In this document: positions 2,089 through 48,247 of the stretch, piece after piece
Position numbering within the stretch: the first letter of the stretch is position 1
How the letters are laid out: each line of letters begins with the position of its first letter
Source: Thermodesulfobacteriota bacterium
Lineage (GTDB): Bacteria; Desulfobacterota_D; UBA1144; Nemesobacterales; Nemesobacteraceae
DNA length: 64,000 bases
Reading direction: 5' to 3'
NCBI GenBank assembly: GCA_965204035.1
Contig: OZ241964.1
Coordinates: forward strand, 1,438,726 to 1,502,725
The notes under the pieces: generated by a model
Database searches by the model: none
What the model was told of the DNA's origin: nothing
Seen by the model: only the letters and a program-made list of their open reading frames with translations
Translations under genes and position numbers: made by a program

Positions 2089-3413
2089 TTGTCAATAACA
2101 GTAATTGGCGCAGGACTCGCAGGGGTTGAAGCCGCAAACCAGATAACGAAGTTTGGAATAAGGGCTGCTCTCTATGAAATGAGGCCCCTCAGGAAAACCG
2201 CCGCGCACAGAACCTCGGATCTCGCGGAGCTTGTGTGCAGCAACTCCCTGAAATCGGCGTCCATGGAGAACGCCTCCGGAATACTCAAAGAGGAAATGAA
2301 GTCTCTAGGTTCGCTTGTCATCGAGGCGGCCGAGGCATCTAGGGTTCCGGCTGGGAAGGCCCTTGCGGTCGACAGAGAGATATTCTCGGATTACATAACA
2401 AAAAGAATTCAGGGTAACGAACTTATAGACCTAAAGAGGGAAGAGGTAACAAAAATACCCGGAGACGGGATCGTGATCGTGGCCACCGGTCCACTCACTT
2501 CGGATGCACTTTGCGCGGAGATCTCCTCGCTCACGGAATCCGAATACCTTTACTTCTACGACGCCATCTCGCCGATAATCGACGCGGATACAATCGACCG
2601 CTCGAAAATCTTCAGGGGATCAAGATACGACCACGGAGACTCAGAAGAGGGAGATTATCTCAACTGCCCACTCTCTGAGGATCAGTACTACGAACTTGTG
2701 GATGACCTGATTCGCGGAGAAAAAGTGGAGACCAGAGAGTTCGAGAAAGCAATCTACTTCCAAAGCTGCATGCCGGTTGAGGTCATGTGCGAGAGGGGGA
2801 GAGACACTCTTCGGTTCGGCCCCTTAAAACCCGTCGGCCTGATTGACCCGAGAACCGGCAAAACCCCCTTTGCCGTCCTGCAGCTAAGAACGGAGAACAG
2901 CGAGGAAACGATGTACAACATGGTGGGATTTCAGACAAAACTCAGGTACCCGCAGCAAAGAACCGTTTTCAGGAAGATCTCTGGGCTTGAAGGGGCGGAG
3001 TTCCTAAGATACGGAAGCGTCCACAGAAACACATACATAGATTCCCCCAGGCTCCTTGAGAAAGACCTTTCCCTGAGTTCCAGTCCAGACGTCTTCTTCG
3101 CCGGACAGATCACGGGAGTTGAAGGATACGTCGAGTCCGCCGCAACGGGAATTGTCTGCGGAATAAACGCCTCGAGAAAAGCGTCGGACTCGCATCTGCC
3201 CACGTCCCGAGGGAAACATCCATAGGTTCCCTGCTTGAGTACATCTCGACCCCCCGAAAAACCGGGTTTCAGCCGATGAACATAAACTTCGGCCTTTTCC
3301 CCAAGGTCGAAGCAAGGATGAGGAAAGAAAAAAAGCGTGAAATCATCGCTCAAAGAGCCATAGAAAGTATAGCTGCGTACGACTCTTCTTGCCGGGTATC
3401 CGTTTCTTGCTGA
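2089..3413 (+). pseudogene. trmFO: tRNA (uracil54-C5) methyltransferase TrmFO, reading frame broken once near 3177-3180
   Basis: ORF 2089..3225 (TTG start, VIGAGLAG FAD fold, FAGQITGVEGYVESAATG) ends prematurely. The conserved TrmFO C-terminus (VPRETSIGSLLEYISTPRKTGFQPMNINFGLFP...) continues in another frame, 3183..3413. One extra A in the A4 run at 3177-3180 would restore a ~441-aa protein. Confidence 0.8.
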
Positions 3414-3789
3414 AACTATAGCGCTTGGTCTATAGCTCAAAAACTGGCAGGAATATGGGCTATAGGAGGTGTTTTTATCGCTCATGGAATGAATATGGCA
3501 ACATTCTGATTGGCCGGACTTCACATTGGATCAGTCTGTTCTGATACCTTTCGAGGAGCGTTTTCTGCATGAGTCAGGGCGCACTAAACAGAACCGGACA
3601 GCGACGCCACACACGCTACTGGCTCAACTTGCCTCCCTTTGAGAAATCGGACCGTCATAAAACAACCGATCAACAAACAACCTCACAACAATCATGCCTG
3701 CAAATCATCGAAAGTACCCGCAGGTAAAGCCTTTACAAACATGTCAGCGTATTTGATTCTTCTATTTTAATGGTAGTATTTTGCCGGTC

Positions 3790-4677
3790 ATGACATATCA
3801 GGAACTTATTCTGGCTCTTCAGGATTACTGGTCATCCAAGGGATGCTTGGTGGTCCAGCCCTACGATATAGAAAAAGGCGCCGGGACTTTTCATCCGGCC
3901 ACTTTCCTGCGCTGCCTCGGTCCCGAGCCCTGGCACGTGGCGTATGTCGAACCCTCAAGGAGACCGACCGACGGAAGATACGGAGATAATCCCAACAGGC
4001 TTCAGCACTACTACCAGTTCCAAGTGATAATAAAGCCTTCTCCCGATGATATTCAGGAACTTTTCCTCGACAGCCTCAAGTCATTCGGAATAAATCCGCT
4101 TGAGCACGACATAAGGTTCGTTGAGGATGACTGGGAATCCCCGACACTCGGAGCTTGGGGCCTTGGGTGGGAGGTTTGGCTTGACGGTATGGAAATAACC
4201 CAGTTCACATATTTTCAGCAGGCGGGCGGAATAGACCTTGATCCGATATCGGCCGAGATAACGTACGGAACCGAAAGAATAGCTATGTACCTGCAGGAAG
4301 TCGAAAGCGTTTACGATCTTGAATGGACAAAGGGAATAACGTACGGAGAGATTCATCATCAGAGCGAAGTCCAGTTCTCAAAGTACAACTTCGAGGAATC
4401 CGATCCCGCGATGCTAAGCGACCTGTTTAACATGTACGAGCAGGAATGCAGGTCTCTTATCGAAAAGCAGCTTTCCCTCCCCGCTTACGAATACTGTCTT
4501 AAAAGTTCGCACACCTTCAACCTGCTTGACGCCAGAGGAGCGATAGGGGTAGCCGAGCGGGCCTCATACATAGCGAGGGTAAGGGCACTTGCGAACCTGT
4601 GCGCGACTTCGTATCTGCAGACCAGAGAAAACCTGGGATTCCCTCTTCTCAAAAACAACCCATGGAAAAAGAACTGA
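3790..4677 (+). CDS. glyQ: Glycine--tRNA ligase alpha subunit
   Basis: [19 protein letters not shown]..., [23 protein letters not shown] are hallmark GlyQ sequences. ATG at 3790 is preferred over the TTG at 3781. Confidence 0.95.
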
Positions 4678-6752
4678 TATTAGAAATCGGAACGGAGGAG
4701 ATACCTGCTCTATTCCTTGAAAAAGCCCGGGAGGATCTGGGCAACATCCTAAGCGGAGAACTCCGTGACAAAGGTGTTGAATTCGAGGAAATGGAAATCT
4801 TTTATACCCCGAGAAGGCTTTCGGCCAGGGTAAGCGGACTTCAGAGAAAGCAGAAAGACCGCACGACCGAGAACTTCGGACCGCCCAAGCGCATAGCGTT
4901 TGATGAAGACGGAAAGCCCACCAAGGCCGCTTTGGGCTTCGCCAGATCCCAGGGGGTCGATGTTGAGGAACTCGTCATCGCAAAAAGGGATAACGGGGAA
5001 TTCCTCTGCGTAAGGAAAACGGTAAAAGGAAAAAAAACTTCATCCGTTCTAAAAGAAATTCTTCCGGGAGTAATCTCATCGGTTCCCTTCCGGAAATCAA
5101 TGAGATGGGGCAACGGAAAACTGACCTTCGCAAGACCCATAAGGTGGATAGCGGCACTCTACGATGACAAGCCAGTAAAATTCAGCGTTGAAAACATCAA
5201 AAGTTCTGACCGAAGCTTCGGTCACAGGTTCACTTCCCCAAAACCGTTTCGAGTGACATTCTGGGGAAATTATCTGAAAACTCTTGAGAAAAAAAACGTA
5301 GTAGCGGACCCAGAGAAAAGAAAGGAAATAATAAGAAGGAACACAGAGACGGCGGCCAAAAAGATAGGCGGAATCATAAAGGAAGACCCTGAGCTGCTTG
5401 AAACTGTGGTGAACCTGGTGGAGCATCCAACGGTTCTGGTGGGAGAGTTCGAGGAAAAATACCTGCGGTTGCCCGAGGAAGTTCTTATAAGCGTGATGAA
5501 GAATCACCAGAAATATTTCCCTGTTTATTCTGAGAAGACCGGCAAGCTTCTTCCCCGTTTCATCTTTGTCTGCGGAACCCCGGTTAAGGATAAACGGGTA
5601 ATTATAAGGGGAAACGAGCGGGTAATAAGGGCAAGACTTAACGACGCCGAATTCTTTTTCTCCGAAGATACGAAGAAAAGCCTAAGCGCCTACACAGAAG
5701 ATCTTGAGAGCATGGTGTTTCTATCTGATATAGGAACTTACAGGGGAAAAGTCGAGCGTATGAGGATGCTTGCCGCCGACATCTTTGCCAGTCCCGATCT
5801 TGAAAGGGCCGCGGAACTCTCAAAGTCCGATCTCGCGACCCAGATGGTCTTTGAATTCGCCGAACTCCAGGGTGTCATGGGCAAGTATTACTCACTTACT
5901 TCCAAGGAGAAAAAAACCGTCGCGAACGCGATCGAGGAACAATACATGCCGCTTACTAGAACCGGTGAACTCCCGCGAACGAAAACCGGAGCGCTTCTGA
6001 GCATAGTGGACAAAACGGATAATATCTGCTCGTGCTTCATCGCGGATCTCGCACCCACCGGGTCTTCCGATCCCTATGCGCTGAGAAGACAGACCCTCGG
6101 AATAATAAGGATCGCCATAGAGAAGAAGCTTGATATTTCTCTCTCCACGCTCCTTGAACGCGGCATAAGGCTCGTGCTCGATTCCATGGACGCGCAAAAA
6201 GCTCGTGACGGCAAACTGTCCGAAGAAGAACTTAAAGTGAACATTCTCGCGTTTTTCTCCGAGAGGTTCCGCAACCTGATGACAGAGTCAGGTTACGAGA
6301 GAAATGTCGTCGAATCCGTAATCTCGGCAGGTTTTGACAATCCCCTTGACGCCTACCGCAGAATAAACGCGCTTGGGAAATTCGCAAAACGAAAGGATTT
6401 TGAGGCTCTGGCTACAGGCTTTAAGAGGGTTTTCAACATAGCGAAAACCAGACCGTCTTCACCGCTTGACAAGAAGTTGTTTAAGCAAAAAGAGGAGAGG
6501 GACCTCTATAGAGCTTTTACCAAGACGCAGACAGCGGTTTTAAAGAAACTGGCCGATTCTGAAAAAGCTGCCGGGCAAAGCGATTACCTCAAAGCGCTTG
6601 AATCCATAAAGACACTCTCCGCACCAATAGATCGTTTCTTTGACGCTGTAATGGTCATGGACAAAAACAAGAAGATCAGAGACAACCGTCTGGCTTTGCT
6701 CAATGAAATAAAAGATCTGTTTTTCATGATTGCCGATTTCTCGAAAATCTGA
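4662..6752 (+). CDS. glyS: Glycine--tRNA ligase beta subunit
   Basis: [15 protein letters not shown] start overlapping the glyQ end by 16 nt. Length and conserved blocks are typical of GlyS. Confidence 0.95.
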
Positions 6753-6804
6753 CCTGCGACCAGCCGACAGGCCCGGGCAGGCAATCCCGGTCAAAAGCAA
6801 CGAA

Positions 6805-8028
6805 TCAAAGTTGCGCGAATGGCAGAGCCACCGTGCCAAGGCCAAGAGGAAGTCTCATGTCGCCGGGGTGTACTACGTACCCGGACATCGCCACATCTCC
6901 CGTGTCTTTGCGAAACGCGTTTATGGACCTTGCCATGTGCCGACGCGGCGTCGCCGACAGTTTTACCTCCACCGGCACAAGTTTTCCTTCCGTTTCGATT
7001 ACGAAATCCACCTCGTTTCCGGCCATGGTTCTCCAGAAAAAGACTCTCGGGATTTCTCCGCGGTGAACCAGAGTCTTCACGATTTCAGAGAGCACGGCGG
7101 TCTCCATGATGGCACCTCCCATGGGACCTGCGGCTGCGTGCTGCGGGTCTTTCAGACCTGCAAGGTAACACAAAGTGCCCGTATCGGTGAAATAGACCTT
7201 CGGGGTTTTGACAAGCCGTTTTCCGACGTTGGAGAAATACGGCTGAAGCACAACCACCTGATAAGTGGCTTCCAGCACCGAGAGCCAAGCCTTGACGGTG
7301 TTAACCGAAATTCCAAGATCACGGGCCACATCGGCAAGATTCAGCAACTGTCCGCTTCTTGCCGCCAGGACCTGAAGGAATTTCCTGTAAAGGGCAAGGT
7401 CTCCTATATGACGCAGAGAACGGACGTCACGTTCAAGATAAGTCTGTATATAGCCGCCGTGCCAGAGAAACTCGTCTATTTCAGGTTGAGCGGCAGGTTC
7501 CGGGTATCCTCCCCTCAGGAACTCTTTCCATAACCTGTCAAAAGCCCGTGAGTTGTCAGGAGACGGCACGGCCCCCGATTCCCAAGGCAGGGAAAGCCCC
7601 GGCGCCGCATCCAGTTCCCGCCTGGAAAGCGGCAGCAGACAAAGCACGGCAATACGCCCGGCCAGAGACTCGGTCACTTTTTCCGTAAGCGCGAGGTTTT
7701 GAGAGCCCGTTAACAGGAACTGGCCTTTTTTACCTCGATCGGCGTCGATTTTTTCCTTTATGTAGAAAAACAGTTCCGGGGCATATTGAGCTTCATCAAG
7801 TATCACAGGGGGCGGATAGGTCTCAAGGAATGTGCGGGGATCCTGCAGCGCCAGCGCGCGGATGTCAGGCAACTCAAGAGAGACGTAACGGTAACTATCG
7901 CCGAACAATCGCAGCAGCAGGGTCGTTTTGCCGGACTGGCGCGGTCCGCTTACCAGTACGGCCGGAAACTGCGAAACAGCTTTTATGAGTACGGTCTCAA
8001 GCGATCTTTTTATATACGGAAGTTCCAT
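6805..8028 (-). CDS. AAA-type ATPase of the AAA_14/DUF4143 kind
   Basis: Walker A SGPRQSGKTTLL, Walker B ILDEAQ, TGSQ sensor block. Paralogue of 53601..54731. Confidence 0.8.
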   Translation of the reverse strand: MELPYIKRSLETVLIKAVSQFPAVLVSGPRQSGKTTLLLRLFGDSYRYVSLELPDIRALALQDPRTFLETYPPPVILDEAQYAPELFFYIKEKIDADRGKKGQFLLTGSQNLALTEKVTESLAGRIAVLCLLPLSRRELDAAPGLSLPWESGAVPSPDNSRAFDRLWKEFLRGGYPEPAAQPEIDEFLWHGGYIQTYLERDVRSLRHIGDLALYRKFLQVLAARSGQLLNLADVARDLGISVNTVKAWLSVLEATYQVVVLQPYFSNVGKRLVKTPKVYFTDTGTLCYLAGLKDPQHAAAGPMGGAIMETAVLSEIVKTLVHRGEIPRVFFWRTMAGNEVDFVIETEGKLVPVEVKLSATPRRHMARSINAFRKDTGDVAMSGYVVHPGDMRLPLGLGTVALPFAQL

Positions 8029-25291: not shown

Positions 25292-25320
25292 TTGAATTTA
25301 TTCCCGCTTGCCGTTATACT
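25292..25320 (+). promoter_or_regulatory. Sigma70-type promoter: -35 TTGAAT, 17-bp spacer, -10 TATACT
   Basis: Conserved base-for-base in all three copies. Lies 24 nt upstream of the leader ATG (25345). GCCCGA-N6-TCGGGC hairpin immediately upstream. Confidence 0.7.
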
Positions 25321-25393
25321 GACGGTCGGAGGGTATACAGAAAGATGAGCAAAACAGAAAGAAATCCGTTACTGATGACTGAGAAAGGGGCTA

Positions 25394-25409
25394 CCCCCCC
25401 CCCCATTTT
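25394..25409 (+). repeat. Homopolymer tract C11-A-T4 inside the leader coding region (copy A)
   Basis: Counted directly. The leader ORF 25345..25428 terminates 19 nt after the tract because the downstream signal-peptide frame is offset by 1 nt. Confidence 0.95.
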
Positions 25410-25561
25410 GTCTCCCGCTAAGTTCTGATTCCCCCGGTTTTTCCCGCAAGTCCGCCCGGACGCTTTCCCTTCTCCTGTTCCTGCTGCTCGGCGCGTTCAG
25501 TCTGCCCGACGCGGCTTTTGCCCAGATTCTAAGGGTTGTTTATGCGGTAAAGGACCTAAGC

Positions 25562-27763
25562 GTGTCCGCGGTCGGCAACACGCTGCGAGTGTCGTGGGCT
25601 AACGACACTGATAACGGCTTTGACGCTCCTACTCATCACCTTGTGCACTACACCACCTCGGCCACCTTGAGAAGCGATTTAAGCAATGTAGGCTCAAACG
25701 TAGCCACCCAGTGGGTGGACGCGGGCCACAGCGGCACGACGACCTCGCACACGATCTCCGGTCTGAGCTACGGCACGACCTATCGGGTGCGCGTACAGAA
25801 CCAATATGTAGGGAGTGATAGTCAAAATTCCAACAGCCTTTGGACAACCAGTAGCGCTACGACCGGGGCTGCCCCCACGACCCCCACGACTCCTGCGCAG
25901 ACCGCCGAGCTTGGGGCTATCACGCCTGGCGCCGAGGGCGGAGTTCCGTCCATCTCGGTTTCCTACCGCCCCGTCACCTCCTCCTATATACAGATCGTAA
26001 AGAGCGATCAGCCCGCGTTCGGACCCGGGGACACCTGGCCGGAGCGCTACCGAGAGTGCCCCGGAAGAACCCTGCCCGGCGGCGTCGCCGCGGTGAGAAC
26101 GGAGGACACGTTTACCCCCGGAGTCAAGCGAGTCATTTTCAAGGGGTTTGATAAGGATACCACTTACCTGGTGCGGACTTGCAAAGGTTCAGTCATCTCT
26201 CCCCAGCTTTCCGTCACCACCTGGACCGTTCCCGGACCGCCGAAGGACGAGAAGGTGGTTGGCAGCAACAAGGACGGGATCTGCGTCAGATGGGCTCCTC
26301 CCGACAACAATGGCGGCGAGGGGGCGAGCATAACCGGCTACGATCTCCAGTTCAGGGAGTCTGGTGCGTGGAATAGCGAAGAGGCAAGCCACCCAAGAGA
26401 CGGATGGGTGACGGTTCCCGTCTTCGGAACCAGCACCAGCAAGGATATTCTCCGCCGCAGGGTGGATAACGGCAATGTGCTCTACACGGTGCCCGAAGGT
26501 CTGTACGATGTCCGGGTGCGGGCGAAAAACGGTATTGATCCCGGGAGCAAGTGGGTTACCAAAGAACTGGTGCAGGTGTCCGACCAGGGAACGGGTACCT
26601 GCGCCGCGGGAACATCCGTTCCCGCGCAGACTCCCCCCGCGCAGACTCCCCCCGCACAGACTCCAACGACGGGAGGCGGCGGCACCCCGGGCGGCGGCGG
26701 CACCCCGGGCGGCGGGGGTGGTACTCCTTCCGGCGGCGGTGAACCGCAACTGTCTTCAGACGCTTCCCTGAGCGGACTCCGCGTCTCTGAAGGAGACCTG
26801 ATGTTCAGCCCCGGGACGCGGGACTACGAAGTGACGGTGGGTCTTGAGGTGAGCGAACTCTCACTCACCCCAGAGGCCGGTCACCCCGACGCGGAAATAG
26901 AGATAAACGGCGTCTCCGCGCAAAGCGGAGAGGAAACGCGGATTGATCTCGGGGAGGACGAAACCGTCTCGATAACGATAACGGTCACCGCTCCCGACGG
27001 AGAGACCGCGATAACCTACACGGTAAGAGTTGCACGGGGGGAGGAGTGCGGGATAAACGACAAGGAAGCCCTCACAAGGTTCTACCGGGCCACGGGGGGA
27101 GACGAGTGGACAATGAAAGACAACTGGAACACCGAAAATCCTCTTGGGGAGTGGTACGGAGTAAGTACCGATGAAAACGAAAAAGCAATATCCCTTCTTC
27201 TGGCTGACAACAACCTTGAGGGAAAGATTCCCAGGGAGTTTCTGTGCCTCGCGGAACTCAAGGAACTCGCCCTCTGGGGCAACGAGGGGCTTTCGGGGCA
27301 TGTACCCGAAAACCATACGCTGGCGACAGAGAGGGCCGCGCTTCTTTACATTGCGCGCGCGCTTTCGCTCAACGCCGAGTGGTTCGATACTTACGAAGCC
27401 CCCTATTACGACTTCCCGGAGTGGCATGACGGGGTTACGACGGATGACGGAAGGGTAACGGAACTTTCCTTCTCGGGGGAAGACATAAGCGGAGTGATTC
27501 CCGTAATTCTCTTAACACAGCTAGAAGAGCTTGAGACTCTTGACCTTGAGTGCTCGGGCATCACCCTTGGCGGAGACGCGCCCGCGGGGGTTGAGGTAAA
27601 GGAGGGCTGCGATGAGGAAGAGGAGGAACGGCCGGACGGCGGGGGAGGCTGCGCTCTCGGAGACCAGGGGAGCGGGGGAGCGCCAGGCATCCTGCTTCTG
27701 CTGCTTGTGGCTGCCGTGTACTGGAGAGGGGCTTTTCTGAAAGTCCTCGGACGACCAGTTTGA
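25562..27763 (+). CDS. Family member 1: FN3 repeats, Pro/Thr/Gly linker, cadherin-like beta-sandwich, LRR, GGC tail; disconnected from its start codon and signal peptide (apparent phase-OFF)
   Basis: The frame is open from 25379 and encodes FCLPLSSDSPGFSRKSARTLSLLLFLLLGAFSLPDAAFAQ (signal peptide) with no ATG/GTG/TTG before 25562. FN3-like blocks (LRVSWA..YRVRVQN; VRWAPPDNNGG..YDVRVRAKN). LSGLRVSEGDL..YEVTV cadherin-like. LADNNLEGKIP LRR. Tail GGGGCALGDQGSGGAPGILLLLLVAAVYWRG. Confidence 0.75.
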   Translation: MSAVGNTLRVSWANDTDNGFDAPTHHLVHYTTSATLRSDLSNVGSNVATQWVDAGHSGTTTSHTISGLSYGTTYRVRVQNQYVGSDSQNSNSLWTTSSATTGAAPTTPTTPAQTAELGAITPGAEGGVPSISVSYRPVTSSYIQIVKSDQPAFGPGDTWPERYRECPGRTLPGGVAAVRTEDTFTPGVKRVIFKGFDKDTTYLVRTCKGSVISPQLSVTTWTVPGPPKDEKVVGSNKDGICVRWAPPDNNGGEGASITGYDLQFRESGAWNSEEASHPRDGWVTVPVFGTSTSKDILRRRVDNGNVLYTVPEGLYDVRVRAKNGIDPGSKWVTKELVQVSDQGTGTCAAGTSVPAQTPPAQTPPAQTPTTGGGGTPGGGGTPGGGGGTPSGGGEPQLSSDASLSGLRVSEGDLMFSPGTRDYEVTVGLEVSELSLTPEAGHPDAEIEINGVSAQSGEETRIDLGEDETVSITITVTAPDGETAITYTVRVARGEECGINDKEALTRFYRATGGDEWTMKDNWNTENPLGEWYGVSTDENEKAISLLLADNNLEGKIPREFLCLAELKELALWGNEGLSGHVPENHTLATERAALLYIARALSLNAEWFDTYEAPYYDFPEWHDGVTTDDGRVTELSFSGEDISGVIPVILLTQLEELETLDLECSGITLGGDAPAGVEVKEGCDEEEEERPDGGGGCALGDQGSGGAPGILLLLLVAAVYWRGAFLKVLGRPV
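26621..26665 (+). repeat. 15-bp in-frame tandem repeat x3 (CCCGCGCAGACTCCC), followed by a Gly-rich imperfect repeat
   Basis: Encodes PAQTPPAQTPPAQTP; followed by GGGGTPGGGGTPGGGGGTP. Confidence 0.9.
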
Positions 27764-27788
27764 ATTTATTCCCGCTTGCCGTTATACT
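27760..27788 (+). promoter_or_regulatory. Sigma70-type promoter copy B: TTGAAT-17-TATACT
   Basis: Same sequence as copies A and C. The member-1 stop codon TGA (27761-27763) sits inside the -35 hexamer. Confidence 0.7.
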
Positions 27789-27874
27789 GACACTCCAGTG
27801 TCAGGTAAGGAGGTAGTACAGAAAGATGAGTAAAGCAGAAAGAAATCCGTTACTGATGACTGAGAAAGGGGCTA

Positions 27875-27890
27875 CCCCCCCCCCCATTTT
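27875..27890 (+). repeat. Homopolymer tract C11-A-T4 (copy B)
   Basis: Counted directly. Leader ORF 27826..27909 stops shortly after the tract. The main frame is offset by 1 nt. Confidence 0.95.
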
Positions 27891-28060
27891 GTCTCCCGCT
27901 AAGTTCTGATTCCCCCGGTTTTTCCCGCAAGAGCACTAAAGCAATTTCCCTTCTTCCCGGACTGACCGGCGGCCATGGCGCCGCTCCGGCGGTCTCGCGC
28001 CGGGCCGCGTCCGCGTGGCGCCGCCCCGCCCTCCTCCCCGTCCTCGCGCTGCTGCTCGGC

Positions 28061-30538
28061 GTGTTCGGCCTGTTCGAGGCCGCGCCCGCCGCGGCGCAGA
28101 CCCCCGTCTGGTCGTCGGTGCTGACGGTTAATGCGGAAGGCGCAGGCCTAGGCTGCGGCGTTGTAGCCGGCTGTGGGTCTCGGTTAACGGACAATAGCTT
28201 TACGGTGGGCGGCACGGACTTTGTTATTGCTTTATTGCAGGACTACAACAGTGGCACTTATAGCGGTCAACTGAGGTTCCAGTTAGATGAGAATCCGAAT
28301 GATGCTCTGAAGGCCATGAAACTTTGTGTCGGGTCGACCTCATTTTCGCTGTCGAGCCCTTTTGGCAATCTGTACGCTTTCACCAACGCCAACCTGCCCT
28401 GGTCGGCCGGCGCCAAGGTGCCCCTGAGCATCATGGGCAGCGGCGCGTCCTGCCCGACGCCCCCGGTCTCGCTGGGCCGCGCCGGCAGCATGTCCGTCGA
28501 CGGGTTCCACCCAATGGGACCCGGACGCATGAAGATCGCCGAGGGCACATCGATCACCTACGGCATCGTGATCCACCAGCCGCCCACCGCGGATCTGACC
28601 ATCACGCCGCGACACCACAACGTCCGACCGGACGGCAGCGACTACCCCAACGTCGACACCAGTCTGCTCACGATCCACAACGCGGTCACCTGGAAAGCCG
28701 CCCCGCACCCCAACTACCTGAGCGGGGACTGGCAGCAGGCCAAATCGGTCGGGCTCACCGCCGTGGACGACAACGAGTGCAAGTCTCCGCCCGGCACCCG
28801 GTACTGGATCAGGCACCACGGCAGCGGCGGCGGTCCCGACTGGGGCGGGTGGGACCGGCAGGACCGGCACCATGGCCTGGTGATCTCGATCGAAATCATC
28901 GACGACGACTGCAAATATCTGGCCGCTTCCCCGGGCCAGGTGTATCCGGAGGAGGGCGCCAGCGCGACCTACACCGTGCGCCTGAAGACGCCGCTCGAGG
29001 ACGCCGCGTACATTTCCCCGCGCATCAGCGTCCCCGGCGACAGCGACCCCGGCGCGATCACGGTCTCTCCCGAGCGGATCCGGGTCGAAGCGGGAGACAC
29101 GAGCCCGAAGACGTTCACGGTCAGCGCCGGAAGGGACGCGAACTCCCGTAACGAGGTCCTGATCGTCGACCACAGCGTCGACTCGCCGGGGATCCCGGCG
29201 GATTACCTGGGCGCCCAGGTGACCGTCATTGTCCAGGACGAACAGAACGCGGCGAGGACGCAGGAGCGCGACGCGCTGAGCGTGACCGGGCTCGCGCTCA
29301 CGGCCGGTTCGGAGGCGGTGGCGCTGAGCCCGGCCTTCTCGACGGATGTGCTGTCCTACCGGGCGCAGGTCCCGGCGGGGACGGCGGGCGTGACGCTGGC
29401 GCCGCACTGGAGCGGCGGGGCGAGCGTGTTCGCGGGCTCGCGCCGGGGCGATACGACCTTCACGCGCCCGGCGCGGGTGCGGCCCTCGGGGACGGCGGTC
29501 GCGCTGGCGCTGGCGCCGGACGGCGGCGCGACCGAGCTGTGGGTGATGGCGAGCGACGGTTCGAGCGGCATGACGACCTACCGCATCGAGGTGACCGAGG
29601 CGCAGACGCAGGCGCAGGCTCTGACGACGGGCGGAGGAGGCACCCCGGGCGGCGGTGGCGGTTCTCCTTCCGGTGACGGAGGAGGCGGTGGAGCCCCTCC
29701 CACTGGCGGAGACAGTCCTTCGCCCGAAGAACCCCAAGAGCCTGAACAGACTGATGAGTGCGGAGATAACGACAGGGAAAACCTTGTGAGACTCTACGAC
29801 GCTACGGGCGGAGACAACTGGGATGAGGAAAAGAAGACAAACTGGAACTCCCCCGAACCTCTCGATCAGTGGTATGGAGTGGATACAGATGAAGACGGAG
29901 AGGTTGTATCCCTTCGTCTTGCGGATAACAATCTCTCCGGACAGATGCCGACAAAAGAACTTCTGTGTCTTAATGAAGACACGGAACTCAAGGAACTTGC
30001 CCTCTGGGATAACGACGGTCTCTCGGGAGAAGAGCCGGATGAACTTGTGCTTGCCGTCGAGAGAGCCGTGCTGAGAGACATAGCGGAAACGATTGACCTT
30101 AACCCCGAGTGGTTTGATGATTACGAGGAGCCCTTTGACTTCGAGAGCTGGCACTCAGGAGTTACGACGGATGAGGATGGAAGGGTGACGGGGCTTGATT
30201 TCACCGGGGAAGACATAGAGGGAGTGATTCCGGGGAGTGTTTTTGAGCTTGAAAACCTCACAGTCATAAGGAAGGGATGCGAAGTCACCCTTGAAGTCGA
30301 AGAGCCAGAGGGAGTGAATGTGATGATGGCTGAAGACTGCCCGGAGGAGACGGCACCTGAAGACATGGAAGAAATGGAGGAAGAGGAAACGGCAGCGTCC
30401 GGAGACGGGGGATGCGCCCTGGGTCAAGGGGATTCTTCTGTATCCGGCTTCGGCTTGTTCCTCGTGACTATTCTTGTCTTCGCGGCGCTTGTGAGAAAAA
30501 GGGTGCTGGTTTCCCGTCTGGCTGGGAACAGGCGGTAA
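28061..30538 (+). CDS. Family member 2: high-GC N-terminal adhesin-like region, Gly-rich linker, LRR, GGC tail; also disconnected from its leader ATG (apparent phase-OFF)
   Basis: The frame is open upstream through FCLPLSSDSPGFSRKS...RRPALLPVLALLLGVFGLFEAAPAAAQ. The only in-frame start is a GTG in the middle of the signal-peptide h-region. Cadherin-like block LSPAFSTDVLSYRAQV. LRR block LADNNLSGQMP. Tail DGGCALGQGDSSVSGFGLFLVTILVFAALVRKR. Confidence 0.75.
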   Translation: MFGLFEAAPAAAQTPVWSSVLTVNAEGAGLGCGVVAGCGSRLTDNSFTVGGTDFVIALLQDYNSGTYSGQLRFQLDENPNDALKAMKLCVGSTSFSLSSPFGNLYAFTNANLPWSAGAKVPLSIMGSGASCPTPPVSLGRAGSMSVDGFHPMGPGRMKIAEGTSITYGIVIHQPPTADLTITPRHHNVRPDGSDYPNVDTSLLTIHNAVTWKAAPHPNYLSGDWQQAKSVGLTAVDDNECKSPPGTRYWIRHHGSGGGPDWGGWDRQDRHHGLVISIEIIDDDCKYLAASPGQVYPEEGASATYTVRLKTPLEDAAYISPRISVPGDSDPGAITVSPERIRVEAGDTSPKTFTVSAGRDANSRNEVLIVDHSVDSPGIPADYLGAQVTVIVQDEQNAARTQERDALSVTGLALTAGSEAVALSPAFSTDVLSYRAQVPAGTAGVTLAPHWSGGASVFAGSRRGDTTFTRPARVRPSGTAVALALAPDGGATELWVMASDGSSGMTTYRIEVTEAQTQAQALTTGGGGTPGGGGGSPSGDGGGGGAPPTGGDSPSPEEPQEPEQTDECGDNDRENLVRLYDATGGDNWDEEKKTNWNSPEPLDQWYGVDTDEDGEVVSLRLADNNLSGQMPTKELLCLNEDTELKELALWDNDGLSGEEPDELVLAVERAVLRDIAETIDLNPEWFDDYEEPFDFESWHSGVTTDEDGRVTGLDFTGEDIEGVIPGSVFELENLTVIRKGCEVTLEVEEPEGVNVMMAEDCPEETAPEDMEEMEEEETAASGDGGCALGQGDSSVSGFGLFLVTILVFAALVRKRVLVSRLAGNRR

Positions 30539-31024: not shown

Positions 31025-31053
31025 TTGAATTTATTCCCGCTTGCCGTTATACT
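31025..31053 (+). promoter_or_regulatory. Sigma70-type promoter copy C: TTGAAT-17-TATACT
   Basis: Identical hexamers and spacer. Lies 24 nt upstream of ATG 31078. Confidence 0.7.
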
Positions 31054-31077: not shown

Positions 31078-34000
31078 ATGAGTAAAGCAGACAAAGATCC
31101 GTTGCTGATGACTGAGAAAGGGGCTACCCCCCCCCCCATTTTTTGTCTCCCGCTAAGATCTGATCCCCCCGGTTTTTCCCGCAAGTCCGCCCGGACGCTT
31201 TCCCTTCTCCCGTTCCTGCTGCTCGGGTTTCTGTGCCTGATGAACGCCACACCCGCTGCGGCGCAGACATCCATCTGGTCTGCGACGCTGACGACGAGGC
31301 CGACAGATAACGGTAACCGGTTCACCGGCTGCCGGAATGCCAGAAGTGGAAACACCAAATGCAGCGATACCTCCACGTTGACGGACGATGATCTTACGGT
31401 CAGTGGCACGGATTATCAGATAATATCGATTTATGCGGAGAAGAGTCGTTCCAATTCCACTCTGGTGATGCAATGGGACCAGGACGTGAGAACCGCACTG
31501 GACAGCTACAAGCTCTGCGCCGGCACGAAGCAGTATGCGTTCGCGGACGCAACGCACGCTGCCAATGATTATACCCAGTGGCAGGCCTCAGCCCTCTGGT
31601 CTGACGGCGATATGATTTCCCTGAGCATCGGCACGTCCTGCCCGAGCTATGTCCCTCCCCCCACGGTATTGCTCTCGGCCACTCCGAACCCCGTGAAAGA
31701 GGGGCATCCGGTGACGCTGACGGCCACCCTGTCTGAGGCCCTTACGATCGATGTCAACATTCCGCTTAAGTTTATCAGGGGCACGACGGGCTCGTGGGAC
31801 TACGGTGCTACGCCGCACATCTCGATCCCAAGCGGGCAGACTACCGGCACGGTCACGATCCCGACGCGGCCGGACCATGACCACGACGACGAGATCTTCA
31901 CGGTGGAAATTTTCAAGCCAAACCTGACCGCGTTGCTGACTGCGGGCAGCATGACCTCCGTTATGGTGACGATCCGTGACACGCCGCCGTCGGAGCACCC
32001 GGCCGCCCCCACGGCGACGAGAAATGCCGGCCTGAGTCGTATCACTCTGCTGACAGACACCGCCAGTACCAATGCTGCTACGGGGAACATCCAGAAGCGC
32101 GTGGAAGACAGTCTCAGCCCGTCCTTCCATTCCGACATCCTCAACTACGCGGTGCGCGTGGACGCCGGGGTGAAGAGAATACAAGTGGGTGTCACACCCC
32201 AATACCCTAACTCTATAGCTTACCTCATCATCTACAGCCAGCCGGCAATCCGCTCCGCCCCCTACACCCGTTGGGTGGAACTGGACACGGACGTCAAGCG
32301 TATACGGATCTTGGTGGATACCCCGGGAGCTGCACAAAGGCGGATCTACGAGCTGACGGTGCTTCGGGGCGGTGTCGTGGATCCGTACGCGGAGGATCAG
32401 ACCACAGTCTGGTCATCGACCCTGACGGCGAAGGAACTCTCATCAAGCTTGAGAGGTTGCGATGACTCTGATCAACTGGCTGCAAACAAGTGCTTGGAGG
32501 CCCTTACGGAAAATGAGTTCTCGTATTCGGGTACGCGCTATGGTGTCAGGTTGCTCTCACTCGGCTTCGTTAGCGGCGATTCCAACTTCCTTTTCGGACT
32601 CAACAAGGCCATCCCCAGCGCCATGAAGAACCTCTTGACGCTACACGTCGGAAAAGAACGGGCGCTCCCGCTTAGTTCCAGCACCTTTTCTTCCCAGAGC
32701 GGCAATACCCTCCAATGGTTAAGGTATGTCGTGGGAGGATGGGGAGTGGGCGGTACCGTTCTGCTGAAGCTGACGGGACCGACCTCGCCGGTCATCCCCG
32801 CGGTCTCGCTCTTGGCCACTCCGAACCCCGTGAAAGAGGGACATTCGGTGACGCTGACGGCCACTCTGTCTGCGGCGCTTCCGGTGAATACCTTCATTCC
32901 GCTTAAGTTTATTAGGAGCACGGCGGACTCGTTGGACTACGGTGCTACGCCGCACATCTCGATCCCAAGCGGGCAGACTACCGGCACGGTCACGCTGAAG
33001 ACGAAAGTGAACGTGTACGACGACGACGACGAGACGTTCACGGTGGCGATTGACGAGGACAATCTGTCCTCGAGGTTGACTGCGGGAAGCCTGTCCTCCG
33101 TCACGGTGACGATTGAGGACTACCTGCCGCCCGTCCTGCGGGAGCTCTCCCTTTTCGCCGTGGACAACAGACCCTACGCGAGACGCCTGGGTTTTGTGGA
33201 AGATGATCTTGAACCGACTTTCCACGAAGACACCCTCAACTACACGGTGCGCGTAGACGACTGGGTGCGGTATATAAGGGTGGGTGCCGAAGCCCGATAC
33301 AGTAACCCTGAAGACCCGACGAAGGTACTCGTCAACGGCGAGCCGAAGAAACCTTTCTCCAGTTTTTGGGTGGAACTGAAGGATGTCACGCCGATCGAAA
33401 TCGTGGTGAGGACTCCGCTCGGGGAGTCGCGGACCTACGCGGTGAGAGTGCTTCGGGGCAATGCCGAGACTCCGCCCGATCAGACTCCGCCCGATCAGAC
33501 TCCCCCCGATCAGACTCCCCCCGATCAGACTCCAACGACGGGCGGAGGCGGCGGTCCTCCTTCCGGCGGCGGTGAACCGCAACTGTCTTCAGACGCTTCC
33601 CTGAGCGGACTCCACGTCTCTGAAGGAGACCTGATGTTCAGCCCCGGGACGCGGGACTACAAAGTGACGGTGGGTCTTGAGGTGAGCGAATTCTCACTCA
33701 CCCCAGAGGCCGGTCACCCCGACGCGGAAATAGAGATAAACGGCGTCTCCGCGCAAAGCGGAGAGGAAACGCGGATTGATCTCGGGGAGGACGAAGAAAC
33801 CGTCTCGATAACGATAACGGTCACCGCTCCCGACGGAGAGACCGCGATAACCTACACGGTAAGAGTTGCACGGGGGGAGGAGTGCGGGATAAACGACAAG
33901 GAAGCCCTCACAAGGTTCTACCGGGCCACGGGGGGAGACGAGTGGACAATGAAAGACAACTGGAACACCGAAAATCCTCTTGGGGAGTGGTACGGAGTAA

Positions 34001-34602
34001 GTACCGATGAAAACGAAAAAGCAATATCCCTTCTTCTGGCTGACAACAACCTTGAGGGAAAGATTCCCAGGGAGTTTCTGTGCCTCGCGGAACTCAAGGA
34101 ACTCGCCCTCTGGGGCAACGAGGGGCTTTCGGGGCATGTACCCGAAAACCATACGCTGGCGACAGAGAGGGCCGCGCTTCTTTACATTGCGCGCGCGCTT
34201 TCGCTCAACGCCGAGTGGTTCGATACTTACGAAGACCCCTATTACGACTTCCCGGAGTGGCATGACGGCGTTGCGACGGATGACGGAAGGGTGACGGGGC
34301 TTTCCTTCTCTGGGGAAGACATAAGCGGAGTGATTCCCGTAATTCTCTTAAGACAGCTTGAGCGCCTTGAGACCCTTGACCTTGAGTGCTCGGACATCAC
34401 CCTTGGCGGAGACGCGCCCGCGGGGGTTGAGGTAAAAGAGGGCTGCGATGAGGAAGAGGACCTGCCGGGCGACGGAGGGGGAGGCTGCGCTCTCGGAGAC
34501 CAGGGGAGCGGGGGAGCGCCAGGCATCCTGCTTCTGCTGCTTTTGGCTGTGGCGTACGGGAGAGGGGCTTTTCTGAAGGGGCGGCGCGGAAGAAACCTCT
34601 GA
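31078..34602 (+). CDS. Family member 3 (1174 aa, intact, apparent phase-ON): 2 x [novel N-module + Calx-beta-like + cadherin-like], linker, cadherin-like, LRR, GGC tail
   Basis: Leader MSKADKDPLLMTEKGATPPPIFCLPL... joins signal peptide LLPFLLLGFLCLMNATPAAAQ. Calx-beta-like blocks (ATPNPVKEGH.VTLTATLS...DDE.FTV). Cadherin-like blocks (LSPSFHSDILNYAVRV; LEPTFHEDTLNYTVRV; FSPGTRDYKVTV). LRR. Tail GGGGCALGDQGSGGAPGILLLLLLAVAYGRGAFLKGRRGRNL. Confidence 0.85.
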   Translation: MSKADKDPLLMTEKGATPPPIFCLPLRSDPPGFSRKSARTLSLLPFLLLGFLCLMNATPAAAQTSIWSATLTTRPTDNGNRFTGCRNARSGNTKCSDTSTLTDDDLTVSGTDYQIISIYAEKSRSNSTLVMQWDQDVRTALDSYKLCAGTKQYAFADATHAANDYTQWQASALWSDGDMISLSIGTSCPSYVPPPTVLLSATPNPVKEGHPVTLTATLSEALTIDVNIPLKFIRGTTGSWDYGATPHISIPSGQTTGTVTIPTRPDHDHDDEIFTVEIFKPNLTALLTAGSMTSVMVTIRDTPPSEHPAAPTATRNAGLSRITLLTDTASTNAATGNIQKRVEDSLSPSFHSDILNYAVRVDAGVKRIQVGVTPQYPNSIAYLIIYSQPAIRSAPYTRWVELDTDVKRIRILVDTPGAAQRRIYELTVLRGGVVDPYAEDQTTVWSSTLTAKELSSSLRGCDDSDQLAANKCLEALTENEFSYSGTRYGVRLLSLGFVSGDSNFLFGLNKAIPSAMKNLLTLHVGKERALPLSSSTFSSQSGNTLQWLRYVVGGWGVGGTVLLKLTGPTSPVIPAVSLLATPNPVKEGHSVTLTATLSAALPVNTFIPLKFIRSTADSLDYGATPHISIPSGQTTGTVTLKTKVNVYDDDDETFTVAIDEDNLSSRLTAGSLSSVTVTIEDYLPPVLRELSLFAVDNRPYARRLGFVEDDLEPTFHEDTLNYTVRVDDWVRYIRVGAEARYSNPEDPTKVLVNGEPKKPFSSFWVELKDVTPIEIVVRTPLGESRTYAVRVLRGNAETPPDQTPPDQTPPDQTPPDQTPTTGGGGGPPSGGGEPQLSSDASLSGLHVSEGDLMFSPGTRDYKVTVGLEVSEFSLTPEAGHPDAEIEINGVSAQSGEETRIDLGEDEETVSITITVTAPDGETAITYTVRVARGEECGINDKEALTRFYRATGGDEWTMKDNWNTENPLGEWYGVSTDENEKAISLLLADNNLEGKIPREFLCLAELKELALWGNEGLSGHVPENHTLATERAALLYIARALSLNAEWFDTYEDPYYDFPEWHDGVATDDGRVTGLSFSGEDISGVIPVILLRQLERLETLDLECSDITLGGDAPAGVEVKEGCDEEEDLPGDGGGGCALGDQGSGGAPGILLLLLLAVAYGRGAFLKGRRGRNL
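31127..31144 (+). repeat. Homopolymer tract C11-A-T6 (copy C, in frame)
   Basis: Two more T than copies A and B. Reads ACC CCC CCC CCC ATT TTT TGT = TPPPIFC and continues into the signal peptide. Confidence 0.95.
33466..33540 (+). repeat. 15-bp in-frame tandem repeat x5 (CAGACTCCSCCCGAT)
   Basis: Encodes (E/D)QTPP repeated: ETPPDQTPPDQTPPDQTPPDQTPTT. Confidence 0.9.
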
Positions 34603-40316: not shown

Positions 40317-40577
40317 ATGCTCCGCTTATTGTTTCGACCCGCGCGGTGACCGGAAGGCAGAAACACTAACCTCAAGTTCAATATCCGTGTCGAGTTTGGG
40401 GGAGAACCCGCTCCAGACCCCGAGTCGGCGAGCCGGTTAAAAAGATCAATGAACTGCTCTCTTACGTATCCGACAAGCTGAAACTGAACTAGCTGGAACT
40501 TTATTTACCAATACAGGAAAACCACAAAAGATTGCAAACATACTGAACCCGAAAATACATGCAATGGAGATAATTTC

Positions 40578-41960
40578 ATGACTCCTGAACAAATAAAAGC
40601 ACTGGTAGCAAAAGGCGAATCCGAAACGCTTGAGTTCAAGCTCTCTACGGGAAGGCGCAGTGACGCAATGAAAACCGTGTGCGCCATGCTCAATCAACGC
40701 GGCGGGCACGTGCTGTTCGGCGTATCTCCGGAAGGAAAAATAGAAGGCCAGCAGGTGTCTGACCGGACCATTGAGCAGTTAAGCTCCGAAATCCGGAATA
40801 TTGAATCTCAGGTTTTTCCCTCAATTGAGCGGGTACGCGTAAAAGGAGACCTCGAAGTGGTGGTAATAAGCGTGAAACCCGGCAATTCCAAGCCGTATGC
40901 TTACAAACGCAAAGAGTATCGCAGGGTCGGAAACACCACCGTAGAAATGTCGCGCTGGGATGTCACGCAGATGCTTATCGAGGAAGTGCACGAAAAATAT
41001 CGATGGGAAAAACTGCCCGCCGAGGAGTGGTCGATTGAAGACCTTGACGCGGACGAGATTCGGATCACGGTGCAGGAGGCAATCAGGCAAAAACGCCTGA
41101 AAGCCCCGGTAAGCATGGAATTGACTGATTTGCTGCGCGGTCTGGAACTTCTTGGACAAGACGACGAACTGCTTCAGGCGGCGGTCGTGCTGTTCGGCAA
41201 GGAGGAACTCATCGCCCGCAGAATGCCGCAGTGCCTGCTGTGCGTCGCCCGCTTCCGAGGTTTTGATAAAATGGAGTTTCTGGACAATCGGCAGTTCAAG
41301 GGCAACGCTTTCAAGCTTCTTGAGGATGCGGAACGATTTCTGCGCGAGACCCTGCCCATCGCCGGACGGTTTGAACCGGGCCGCTTCGCGCGGATTGACG
41401 AACCGCTCTACCCACACGAAGCAACACGGGAAGCGATTATAAACGCGTTATGTCATCGTGACTACATCATTGCCGGCAGTTCCGTGGACTTGGCGGTCTA
41501 TGATGACCGTATGGAGGTGGTCTCTCCAGGTCCGCTGCACTTCGGACTGACTGCTGAGAAACTGTTCGCATCACACCAATCCCAGCCGTGGAATCCTCTG
41601 ATCGCCAGTACGTTCTACCGTCGAGGAATTATCGAGAAGTGGGGAACAGGAACTATCAAGATGGCGGAAATAATGGAGTCCGCGCATCTTCCGCGCCCCG
41701 AGATTGAGGATAATGGAAGAGATGTAACAGTATGTTTCCGACGCAACTTAATTGATTCGATTGAACGGCAGGAAGTAATTATCTTTTTGATCGACCGCCA
41801 AGCCGATGGACTTACCCTAAGCGACATTCACGCACAGATGCCTCCATATGTAAGTAAACGTCAAGTAAAAAGAGACTTAACCGTCTTGAAAGAGCGTGGT
41901 CTAATAGTATCTACAAAACCAGGTCGCTGGGGACGGTGGATTCGCACAAGAAACTCATAG
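40578..41960 (+). CDS. AlbA_2 (Schlafen-like) + HATPase_c_4-like + C-terminal wHTH putative regulator (often annotated RecG-like)
   Basis: N-terminus GESETLEFKLS...MLNQRGGHVLFGV is the typical AlbA_2/divergent-AAA opening. Middle NALCHRDY block. C-terminal helix-turn-helix-like region. Confidence 0.7.
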   Translation: MTPEQIKALVAKGESETLEFKLSTGRRSDAMKTVCAMLNQRGGHVLFGVSPEGKIEGQQVSDRTIEQLSSEIRNIESQVFPSIERVRVKGDLEVVVISVKPGNSKPYAYKRKEYRRVGNTTVEMSRWDVTQMLIEEVHEKYRWEKLPAEEWSIEDLDADEIRITVQEAIRQKRLKAPVSMELTDLLRGLELLGQDDELLQAAVVLFGKEELIARRMPQCLLCVARFRGFDKMEFLDNRQFKGNAFKLLEDAERFLRETLPIAGRFEPGRFARIDEPLYPHEATREAIINALCHRDYIIAGSSVDLAVYDDRMEVVSPGPLHFGLTAEKLFASHQSQPWNPLIASTFYRRGIIEKWGTGTIKMAEIMESAHLPRPEIEDNGRDVTVCFRRNLIDSIERQEVIIFLIDRQADGLTLSDIHAQMPPYVSKRQVKRDLTVLKERGLIVSTKPGRWGRWIRTRNS

Positions 41961-41990
41961 ACTTGTCATGCATATCCAAGATTCAATTCT

Positions 41991-42096
41991 ATCAATAGGG
42001 CTGTTAAGGGGGACTATTGATACTTAACTACCTGTCAATTAAGAGTTTTTTAAGGTCTGCCAGATTTTCCAGGGGTCTGTTGAGGGGTCTATTGAA
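41991..42096. repeat. Cluster of ~5 degenerate 11-12-bp motifs (GGGTCTATTGA-like)
   Basis: AGGGCTGTTAA, GGGACTATTGA, AGGTCTGCCAG, GGGGTCTGTTGA, GGGGTCTATTGA. The last two are adjacent. Confidence 0.7.
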
Positions 42097-42583
42097 CCTT
42101 TTCCCATCCTGACTTCAGCACATTTTCCTGGAATAGGCACTTAGCCTGTGCATTTCTCACAGAGGGGTATGGGAACGTCTGTATCTCTCAAGATTTTCTG
42201 ATTCTTTTTTTCTTGCCCCTTCCTCGGTCATCCGTCGTGAAGTCTTTACTAGCGGATAGTGCTCGGAATTTTTTGCAAATTTAAGTTTTTGGCATTTCTT
42301 CAGTTTCCCTACCTCAATTCCATCCTTCCCGTCCATCTCCCTCAGCAAATCCATGTCCAGATATCTCCTTGCTTTCCCACTTCGTCCCGGAGATATGCCT
42401 CAGCTTGGCCGCGCACAACATAATTTTCTTTATAATCCTTTCCTTCGGATTGTTCGTCCGTATCCCCCGCCAGCGCAACAACGGGGACCGCTATCTCCTC
42501 AACGCAGTTCTCCAAGTACCTTACCGATGAAGGCAATTGATAATCAGGCTCCCATGATATATTGTCTTGGCAGGAGAAGTAGC

Positions 42584-42808
42584 ATGACGGACAAATTAAT
42601 TGACAGAAATCCGGGTATTCTGGGCGGAACTCCGGTGTTTTCCGGAACAAGGGTTCCCGTACGCATCCTGATGGAACATTTGGAAGCGGGAGACCGCCTT
42701 GACGAGTTTCTGGAAGATTACCCAACGGTAACACGCGATCAGGCAGTTGCCGTACTTGAACGGGCAAAAGCGATGCTCGTGGATAAAGTGGATGAAGCTA
42801 CTGCTTGA
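42584..42808 (+). CDS. DUF433-type antitoxin-like protein
   Basis: IDRNPGILGGTPVFSGTRVPVRILMEHLEAGDRLDEFLEDYP is the DUF433 signature. AGGAGAAG RBS. Confidence 0.8.
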   Translation: MTDKLIDRNPGILGGTPVFSGTRVPVRILMEHLEAGDRLDEFLEDYPTVTRDQAVAVLERAKAMLVDKVDEATA

Positions 42809-43079
42809 TGAATCCGTTCCAAAGAGGCTCGGTTCGTTTTTCCCCAGTGAGTTAAAAGTGCACACGGTCCAGCAGATGGGATGGGCCGGAAGCAGCAACG
42901 GCGATTTGTTGCGCCTTGCCTCCGCCCATGGATTTGACGCTCTGGTCACTGTGGACAAAGGTATTGAGCATCAGCAGCACCTTGGAAAAACTAAGAGACG
43001 ATGGTCCGGTAATGTGCACGGGAACAGGCCCTCTAGCAATGTGGAAACGCACACAAAACAAATAAGCCTTTACCTTTAA
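42792..43079 (+). CDS. DUF5615 (PIN-like/Mut7-C-like) toxin partner, C-terminus possibly degenerate
   Basis: MKLLLDESVPKRL...VHTVQQMGWAGSSNGDLLRLA...DALVTVDKGIEHQQHL matches the family up to about residue 73. The remainder does not look like the usual C-terminal strand region. Confidence 0.6.
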   Translation: MKLLLDESVPKRLGSFFPSELKVHTVQQMGWAGSSNGDLLRLASAHGFDALVTVDKGIEHQQHLGKTKRRWSGNVHGNRPSSNVETHTKQISLYL

Positions 43080-43205
43080 GGAAATGGGTAAGACAGGGGG
43101 CGGATTAGCCTCTATCAGTCTTATATCCTTTACATATTTAAGTTCGCTAAAAATTCTCAACGGGTAAAACAGGGGGTAAAACTAAAATCAAGCGGGGGAT
43201 CCAAC

Positions 43206-43251
43206 AGAGGTCTATCAGGGGTCTAACAAGGGCCTATTAAGGGTCTATTTG
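43206..43251. repeat. Four tandem 11-12-bp motifs of the same family as 41991..42096
   Basis: GAGGTCTATCA GGGGTCTAACA AGGGCCTATTAA GGGTCTATTTG, head to tail. Confidence 0.75.
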
Positions 43252-43266
43252 TAGCCCTGTACCAAA

Positions 43267-48202: not shown

Positions 48203-48247
48203 AAAAAAAAAAAAAGGATGCGAACCCGCAAGACCGCATCCTTTTTT
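48203..48247. terminator. Bidirectional rho-independent terminator
   Basis: A13, GGATGCG, 12-nt loop, CGCATCC, T6. On the minus strand this gives a hairpin followed by T13, directly after the rhodanese gene. Confidence 0.8.

Follow-up and report, generated by a model that had tools for sequence, protein, structure and literature searches.

Three tandem genes in the 64,000-nt stretch analyzed here (contig OZ241964.1, positions 1,438,726–1,502,725 of the forward strand; hereafter the window) are probably slipped-strand phase-variable surface-protein genes, and the first of them appears to be OFF in the assembled consensus. In each gene, numbered here members 1–3, a composite tract of C residues, a single A, and a short T run, abbreviated C(n)-A-T(n), lies between the start codon and the predicted end of the signal peptide. 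Members 1 and 2 carry C11-A-T4, which leaves the leader out of register with the body of the protein (OFF); member 3 carries C11-A-T6, which keeps the two in frame (ON). The host is an uncultured Candidatus Dadabacteria sponge symbiont. The phase-variation interpretation is supported by the reading frames of the window and by their comparison with a second strain, contig L001; these two strains form the comparison set.

Under this interpretation, members 1–3 would be tandem genes of one family, coding for secreted surface proteins that resemble adhesins. A cassette of ~250 nt heads each gene: first come a promoter and a Shine-Dalgarno (SD) sequence, then a leader of 16 codons and the C(n)-A-T(n) tract, and last the basic and hydrophobic portion of an extended signal peptide. 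At replication, slipped-strand mispairing would add bases to the C run or remove them; one C length in three would join leader and body, and the other two would lead into a stop 5–8 codons past the tract. The short T run would set the register, that is, the C lengths that are ON: C10 or C13 with T4 (members 1 and 2), C8, C11, or C14 with T6 (member 3), and C9, C12, or C15 with the T5 of one L001 copy, the orthologue of member 3. At the shared consensus of C11, member 3 would be ON and members 1 and 2 OFF. Two points are inferred: tract length would change quickly and reversibly in living populations, and the encoded proteins would be exposed at the surface. Published criteria for phase variation by frame transition name a repeat at the frameshift together with a surface protein, and the layout here fits them (PMC3711429); in Neisseria, strong phase-variable candidates mostly carry G/C runs (PMC5084427).

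Leader, tract, and body frame of member 1

The reading of member 1 rests on the following elements.

25292–25320, + strand: promoter-like site, TTGAAT-17 nt-TATACT; the same site stands upstream of the other two members and of each of the four L001 members.
25328–25333, + strand: Shine-Dalgarno-like GGAGGG, 12 nt 5' of the ATG, read off the sequence.
25345–25428, + strand: leader open reading frame (ORF) in its present OFF phase; ATG at 25345–25347, 27 codons, then TGA.
25394–25409, + strand: composite tract, the proposed slipped-strand switch; C11 at 25394–25404, A at 25405, T4 at 25406–25409.
25379–27763, + strand: body frame, +1 relative to the ATG; 794 codons open without internal stops.
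25442–25522, + strand: signal-peptide-like segment (SRKSARTLSLLLFLLLGAFSLPDAAFA|Q) in the body frame, judged by eye.
25562–25564, + strand: GTG, the first possible start that the body frame offers, past the signal peptide.

Translation from the ATG enters the C11 run 49 nt past the start codon and yields the short product MSKTERNPLLMTEKGATPPPILSPAKF. The body frame encodes ...PPPPFCLPLSSDSPGFSRKSARTLSLLLFLLLGAFSLPDAAFAQ..., a basic and hydrophobic stretch that resembles a signal peptide; the call was made by eye from the translation, on a basic n-region, a hydrophobic core, and an AxA site. Farther downstream, this frame encodes fn3 and cadherin-like beta-sandwich domains (Pfam) and a C-terminal hydrophobic, anchor-like tail. 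An earlier note on this DNA had placed the stop of the leader frame at 25428 and the signal peptide and body in the next frame, open from 25379, with no ATG, GTG, or TTG before 25562. Each of these statements held: the TGA lies at 25426–25428, the body frame runs to 27763, and its first start is the GTG at 25562, 13 codons beyond the predicted cleavage site AFA|Q. The body frame offers no alternative start upstream except a CTG at 25379, which has no SD sequence.

Editing the C run in silico toggled member 1 between a full-length and a short product. A run of C10 gave an 805-aa fusion of leader and body and C13 an 806-aa fusion, and C8, C9, C11, C12, C14, and C15 gave peptides of 24–28 aa; across this C8–C15 series, both OFF frames terminated 5–8 codons beyond the tract. 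The C10 result bears out the earlier expectation that loss of one nucleotide would fuse leader and body, and the second route then proposed, extension of T4 to T6 as in member 3, agrees with the T6 and the intact frame of that gene. The earlier note had also recognized the layout of a contingency gene, with a homopolymer between start codon and signal peptide; that layout is present, and the comparative evidence given below favors a switch over a dead gene.

Runs of C11 are far more frequent in the window than composition predicts: four occur against 0.08 expected from shuffled sequence, and none of 100 shuffles contained at least four. Three of the four occupy the same position of the repeated cassette. 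The fourth (63841–63851, − strand) lies in frame within a stretch coding for ~18 residues of poly-proline, in a − strand ORF that extends from 62751 to beyond 64000, leaves the window, and has no Pfam match; it could be another length-variable site.

Paralogues, a second strain, and the integrity of the OFF genes

Member 2 repeats the state of member 1, and member 3 differs from both in the length of its T run.

27760–27788, + strand: promoter-like site of member 2; its −35 hexamer overlaps the stop codon of member 1 (27761–27763).
27826–27909, + strand: leader ORF of member 2 in OFF phase; C11 at 27875–27885, then A, then T4 at 27887–27890.
27860–30538, + strand: body frame of member 2; 892 codons open.
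31025–31053, + strand: promoter-like site of member 3, matching that of member 1.
31078–34602, + strand: member 3, in frame (ON); C11 at 31127–31137, then A, then T6 at 31139–31144; 1174 aa.

From its ATG at 27826, member 2 is OFF in a manner identical to member 1. The promoter-like site, the SD sequence, the leader of 16 codons, the tract, and the beginning of the signal peptide are common to all three members, whose predicted domains are cadherin-like beta-sandwich, fn3, and LapA (Pfam). Extended N-termini ahead of the hydrophobic core are usual in this protein family. The C-termini combine a Gly/Cys-rich motif, a hydrophobic helix, and a basic tail; those of member 1 (27554–27760) and member 3 (34393–34599) show a weak likeness to GlyGly-, MYXO-, and JDVT-CTERM, with scores below the curated cut-offs.

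L001 is a 52-kb contig at 4.85x coverage (ENA assembly ERZ25068511), reached through a gene product more than 90% identical to member 3. Its flanks are ~97–98% identical to the window, its ccsB and prfA are identical, and it carries four members where the window has three. Three of the L001 tracts are C11-A-T4 (OFF) and the fourth, in the orthologue of member 3 (96% aa identity), is C15-A-T5 (ON). The tract of member 3 has thus changed by four additional C and one fewer T between the strains (C11-A-T6 vs. C15-A-T5), and both versions are in frame. For members 1 and 2, the orthologous tracts are C11-A-T4 in both strains, and the member 1 orthologue is 69–72% identical in amino acid sequence. 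The seven cassettes of the two strains are near-identical, and the variants they do show—5' untranslated region (5'UTR) type, GAG/GAA, AGT/AGA, and a TCCGCC/AGCAC block—are mosaic and do not follow orthology; the long 5'UTR type of other members carries AAGGAGGT. C-terminal blocks are likewise similar among members (88–91% identity). Elsewhere in the window, a block of ~2.9 kb (40318–43266) has no counterpart in L001 (19253–19499) and is therefore a strain-specific insertion or deletion.

The OFF genes have diverged as coding sequences. Their bodies contain no stop over 776–962 codons in either strain, and every indel between orthologues spans a multiple of three nucleotides. Synonymous and nonsynonymous divergence (dS and dN) are 0.32 and 0.21 between member 1 and its orthologue and 0.20 and 0.13 between member 2 and its orthologue, so that dN/dS is ~0.65 at dS 0.2–0.3; by a rough estimate, neutral decay over this distance would have left ~20 stops per gene. 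Ahead of the tract, the seven leader copies vary at eight sites, five of them at codon position 3 and four synonymous, the others conservative. Past the tract, the OFF copies keep Ser through TCC and AGC codons and exchange R for K. Each OFF gene is broken only once, exactly at the tract. As judged from these patterns, leader frame and body frame both behave as coding, and the tract is the only possible junction between them. Because the bodies are free of stops, the indels are multiples of three only, and the substitutions on both sides of the tract are of the coding type, the OFF genes appear clearly alive and under selection rather than decaying. Other homopolymers of at least 7 bases in coding DNA of the window all sit within intact frames, and the assembly is therefore not generally indel-prone.

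Proposed slipped-strand switching and its alternatives

The proposed switch has known counterparts in other bacteria. In Neisseria, a poly-G run in the signal-peptide-coding region of pilC switches the gene ON and OFF by slipped-strand mispairing. Like pilC, members 1–3 carry a G/C homopolymer after the start codon and ahead of the point where the signal peptide of a surface or adhesion protein ends, with one length in three predicted to be ON; they differ in belonging to another phylum, in encoding an unrelated protein, and in having a composite C(n)-A-T(n) tract placed in a leader extension upstream of the signal-peptide core. Neisseria opa genes, ~11 paralogues that switch independently, carry CTCTT repeats in the region coding for the leader peptide. 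The opa and member families are both surface multigene families in which each gene has its own promoter and leader repeat, allowing combinatorial expression, and in both the 5' regions are conserved while the bodies are variable and recombining. The repeats are pentamers in opa and homopolymers in members 1–3, the opa genes are scattered whereas members 1–3 are in tandem, and the bodies of members 1–3 are large, multidomain, and, as proposed below, partly acquired by horizontal transfer. A third parallel is the poly-G/C contingency genes of Campylobacter and Helicobacter, such as those of H. canadensis (PMC2823697), with a survey available for Neisseria meningitidis (PMC5084427): G/C homopolymers of ~8–13 nt in surface-related coding regions, with a narrow modal length and otherwise rare in the genome. 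Those systems belong to host-associated pathogens and commensals with measured switching, whereas the present one belongs to an uncultured sponge symbiont represented by assemblies alone.

Several observations weigh against slipped-strand switching. The exact C11-A-T4 tract stands at members 1 and 2 in both strains and in the extra L001 copy, and C11 in six of seven tracts is little variation for a hypermutable site. In addition, all six OFF tracts, including one from a different Dadabacteria species (L016, described below), have the body at +1 and none is in the other OFF phase, although these tracts are largely non-independent. Both assemblies are, moreover, probably PacBio HiFi/metaMDBG consensus sequences, which are prone to residual error in long homopolymers; we infer this origin for the window. 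Many of the related Dadabacteria genomes are chromosome-level and UUID-named, in the manner of the Sanger sponge genome notes, which use PacBio HiFi and metaMDBG (PMC12648040; PMC11392814). The near-identity of six of the seven tracts could reflect a shared mutational mode or gene conversion among cassettes, and gene conversion would fit because the cassette variants are mosaic with respect to orthology.

The same uniformity could mean that C11-A-T4 is itself a functional allele, from which a fraction of expression shifts to +1 at the C run with no change in the DNA. The shift could arise by ribosomal slippage of tRNA-Pro on CCC-C at a poly-proline stall or by RNA polymerase dropping one C, and the "OFF" members would then be constitutively low-expressed beside a fully expressed member 3. 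Such recoding would fit the finding that C11-A-T4 is identical in all five OFF copies of the two strains and that L016 (C10-A-T5) has the same phase, a body that is always at +1 and never at −1, a tract read as PPP with a C behind every CCC codon, and OFF genes that are clearly under selection. In all seven copies, the run begins 3 nt after an SD-like AAAGGGG that recalls the stimulator of prfB, with which the members share both the +1 position of the body and a G-rich element at that distance from a slippery run. Programmed shifting of the prfB type would, however, put the frameshift site in all members with no in-frame versions; the intact frames of member 3 and of its L001 orthologue show that a shift is not required. 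It would also place a stop or slow codon after the slippery P-site codon; here, the codon that follows the run in frame 0 is the common AUU, and the stop lies seven codons downstream. CCC is not rare (29–46% of Pro codons), the upstream G-rich element is missing in the other species, the leader RNA is predicted to fold no more stably than its shuffles (z = +1.2), and the identity of the copies is equally accounted for by gene conversion.

Transcriptional slippage at poly(A) tracts rescues frameshifted genes in insect endosymbionts. Those genomes resemble the present one in being symbiont genomes with intact genes broken only at a homopolymer, but their tracts are poly(A) and scattered in housekeeping genes, whereas here a poly(C) stands in a repeated regulatory cassette before surface proteins. 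Programmed transcriptional realignment calls for a run of ~9 or more A or T, and the run here is C11; bacterial transcriptional slippage is biased to A/T runs (PMC1088944), as are the documented bacterial cases (PMC1088944; PMC3711429; PMC5084427). On balance, we regard recoding as an unlikely account of the OFF members. The predicted junction peptide is GATPPPFCLPLSSDSPGFSR from a C10 template, whether DNA or RNA, and GATPPPPFCLPL, with four prolines, from a +1 shift on C11 or from C13.

It is also conceivable, at a slightly lower probability again, that C11-A-T4 is no random OFF state but a selected "leaky-OFF" allele that supplies a steady trickle of full-length protein. The trickle may come from poly-proline stalling on CCC-C or from RNA polymerase slippage on the C run, and it may be why the +1 phase persists in all five OFF copies of the two strains and in another species. 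If so, the cassette would set three levels—full, trickle, and none—for any horizontally acquired surface gene placed behind it.

A homopolymer miscall is quite unlikely in our judgment; on this view, the consensus would be wrong by one, and members 1 and 2 would in reality be in-frame genes with C10 (or C13). The errors that remain in HiFi metagenome assemblies fall mainly in long G/C homopolymers, polishing yields a majority consensus (PMC11392814), and L001 has only the coverage given above. The C11-A-T4 call nevertheless recurs at five loci in two independent contigs, and the intact frames at the other homopolymers of the window speak for its general accuracy. Member 3, moreover, has the same C11 call and is in frame, with a reliably callable T run that is 2 nt longer; because the T runs differ by two, no single C length could bring members 1 and 2 into frame together with member 3.

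We give still less weight to members 1 and 2 as silent cassettes, that is, stable OFF archives expressed only after recombination or gene conversion into an ON context. The mosaic cassette variants, the copy number of three vs. four between strains, the similar C-terminal blocks among members, and the invariant OFF tract would all fit such an archive. Every copy nevertheless keeps an intact promoter, SD sequence, and start codon, which a pure donor would not need, and a C run of 11–15 nt is intrinsically slippage-prone, with one tract having changed length between the strains. Silent-cassette recombination and slippage may coexist.

Recent inactivation with no further role, suggested by a frameshift near the 5' end and by the truncated products that an annotation pipeline called (733 aa from GTG 25562), is most improbable and was rejected on the evidence of selection given above, that is, stop-free bodies with in-frame indels only at dS 0.2–0.3, together with a conserved promoter and leader and the same state in two strains.

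Origin of the cassette and meaning for the host

The locus belongs to Candidatus Dadabacteria, for which NCBI now uses the label Thermodesulfobacteriota: the flanking dapF is 85–97% identical to dapF of many Candidatus Dadabacteria metagenome-assembled genomes. The member cluster has dapF/dodecin on one side and ccsB/prfA on the other. These flanks adjoin directly, dapF next to ccsB/prfA, in the closest other species, and the cassette is absent from the dapF-anchored loci of 26 related Dadabacteria genomes; on this comparison, the cluster forms an island specific to its lineage. Searched as an exact pattern, the leader gave no match in GTDB representative genomes or JGI metagenomes, the leader peptide used as a protein query found no homologues, and an Rfam scan of the region matched no family. 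An apparent inverted repeat upstream of the promoters was not supported. The last codons of member 1 resemble non-coding DNA upstream of the promoters of other members, and this resemblance hints that the array grew by tandem duplication.

A similar tract, which counts in favor of the proposed switch, occurs in the different Dadabacteria species L016 (OZ240231.1), where GCTA-C10-A-T5-GT (7165–7174, − strand; gene 1859–7258) follows an ATG leader (MLDF...CATPPPFL*) ahead of an unrelated 1799-aa Big_9/cadherin/fn3 protein. The phase of this tract is the +1 OFF phase, but its state is ambiguous, as the body frame has a TTG ahead of the tract. In the window, the body of member 2 (27860–30538) is 75–92% identical in amino acid sequence, over ~45–65% of its length, to proteins on many other large contigs of 0.8–9.4 Mb; the contigs fetched all come from one sponge assembly and have a GC content of 62–74%. 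These homologues (P0044–P0100; L157, L158) have in common an extended N-terminus, MRCARREAGPPEP...GGHGAAPAVSRRAASPWRRPALLPVLALLLGALGLFAAAPAQAQ, of which member 2 retains ...LLPGLTGGHGAAPAVSRRAASAWRRPALLPVLALLLG, part of their N-terminal signal region, behind the Dadabacteria leader. Because the homologues' N-terminus has been kept in this way, the body of member 2 was probably acquired horizontally between symbiont lineages and then set behind the local cassette. The promoter–leader–tract cassette thus seems reusable.

Repeats also stand near the starts of homologues in other symbionts. In L083, from a symbiont of 62% GC, a G12 run (5987–5998) stops 2 nt short of the called ATG of P0005, a homologue of 1987 aa, and an upstream leader ORF with SD and ATG crosses the run one base behind, which puts the body at +1. 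In L158, a 6.0-Mb symbiont genome, a perfect heptanucleotide array, (AGCGCCG)x6.6 at 5955–6000, ends at the ATG of a family member and is a possible repeat switch of a different kind. A homologue truncated by an insertion sequence in an organism of 69% GC (L159, P0066) was judged irrelevant.

A metagenome scan with the pattern GCTA-C9+-ATTTT-GT returned 73 loci and was discarded: the 15 pure matches lie in unrelated intergenic or 3'-end contexts (soil, gut, and other), and their shared core is uninformative because the search pattern forced it. Among these loci, one soil lineage has an unrelated polymorphic C tract (L097, L104, L108, L118, L131, L145, L146, and L155): its GCTA-C9-ATTTTGT stands in an intergenic setting that is conserved, and one sample shows C13 there. 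Apart from the member cluster, the window has an A13 run (48203–48215) in the gap between two genes; together with the hairpin ggatgcg...cgcatcc and the T run that come after it, this run resembles a bidirectional intrinsic terminator.

As a homopolymer contingency gene, member 1 is of a known kind; the interest lies in the host lineage and in the modular cassette. The features that stand out are the reusable promoter–leader–tract unit, the staggering of the register through the T run, and the uniform +1 OFF state. A search of the accessible literature library found no paper linking sponge symbionts to phase variation at simple sequence repeats. Sponge symbionts must persist among phagocytic host cells and phages, and their genomes are rich in eukaryote-like adhesion domains. 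The three tracts of the window lie within 5.8 kb, so that single HiFi reads can cover their joint ON/OFF state and the idea can be tested without cultivation. If slipped-strand switching operates as proposed, clonal populations of Candidatus Dadabacteria would be heterogeneous in proteins that face the host or its phages.

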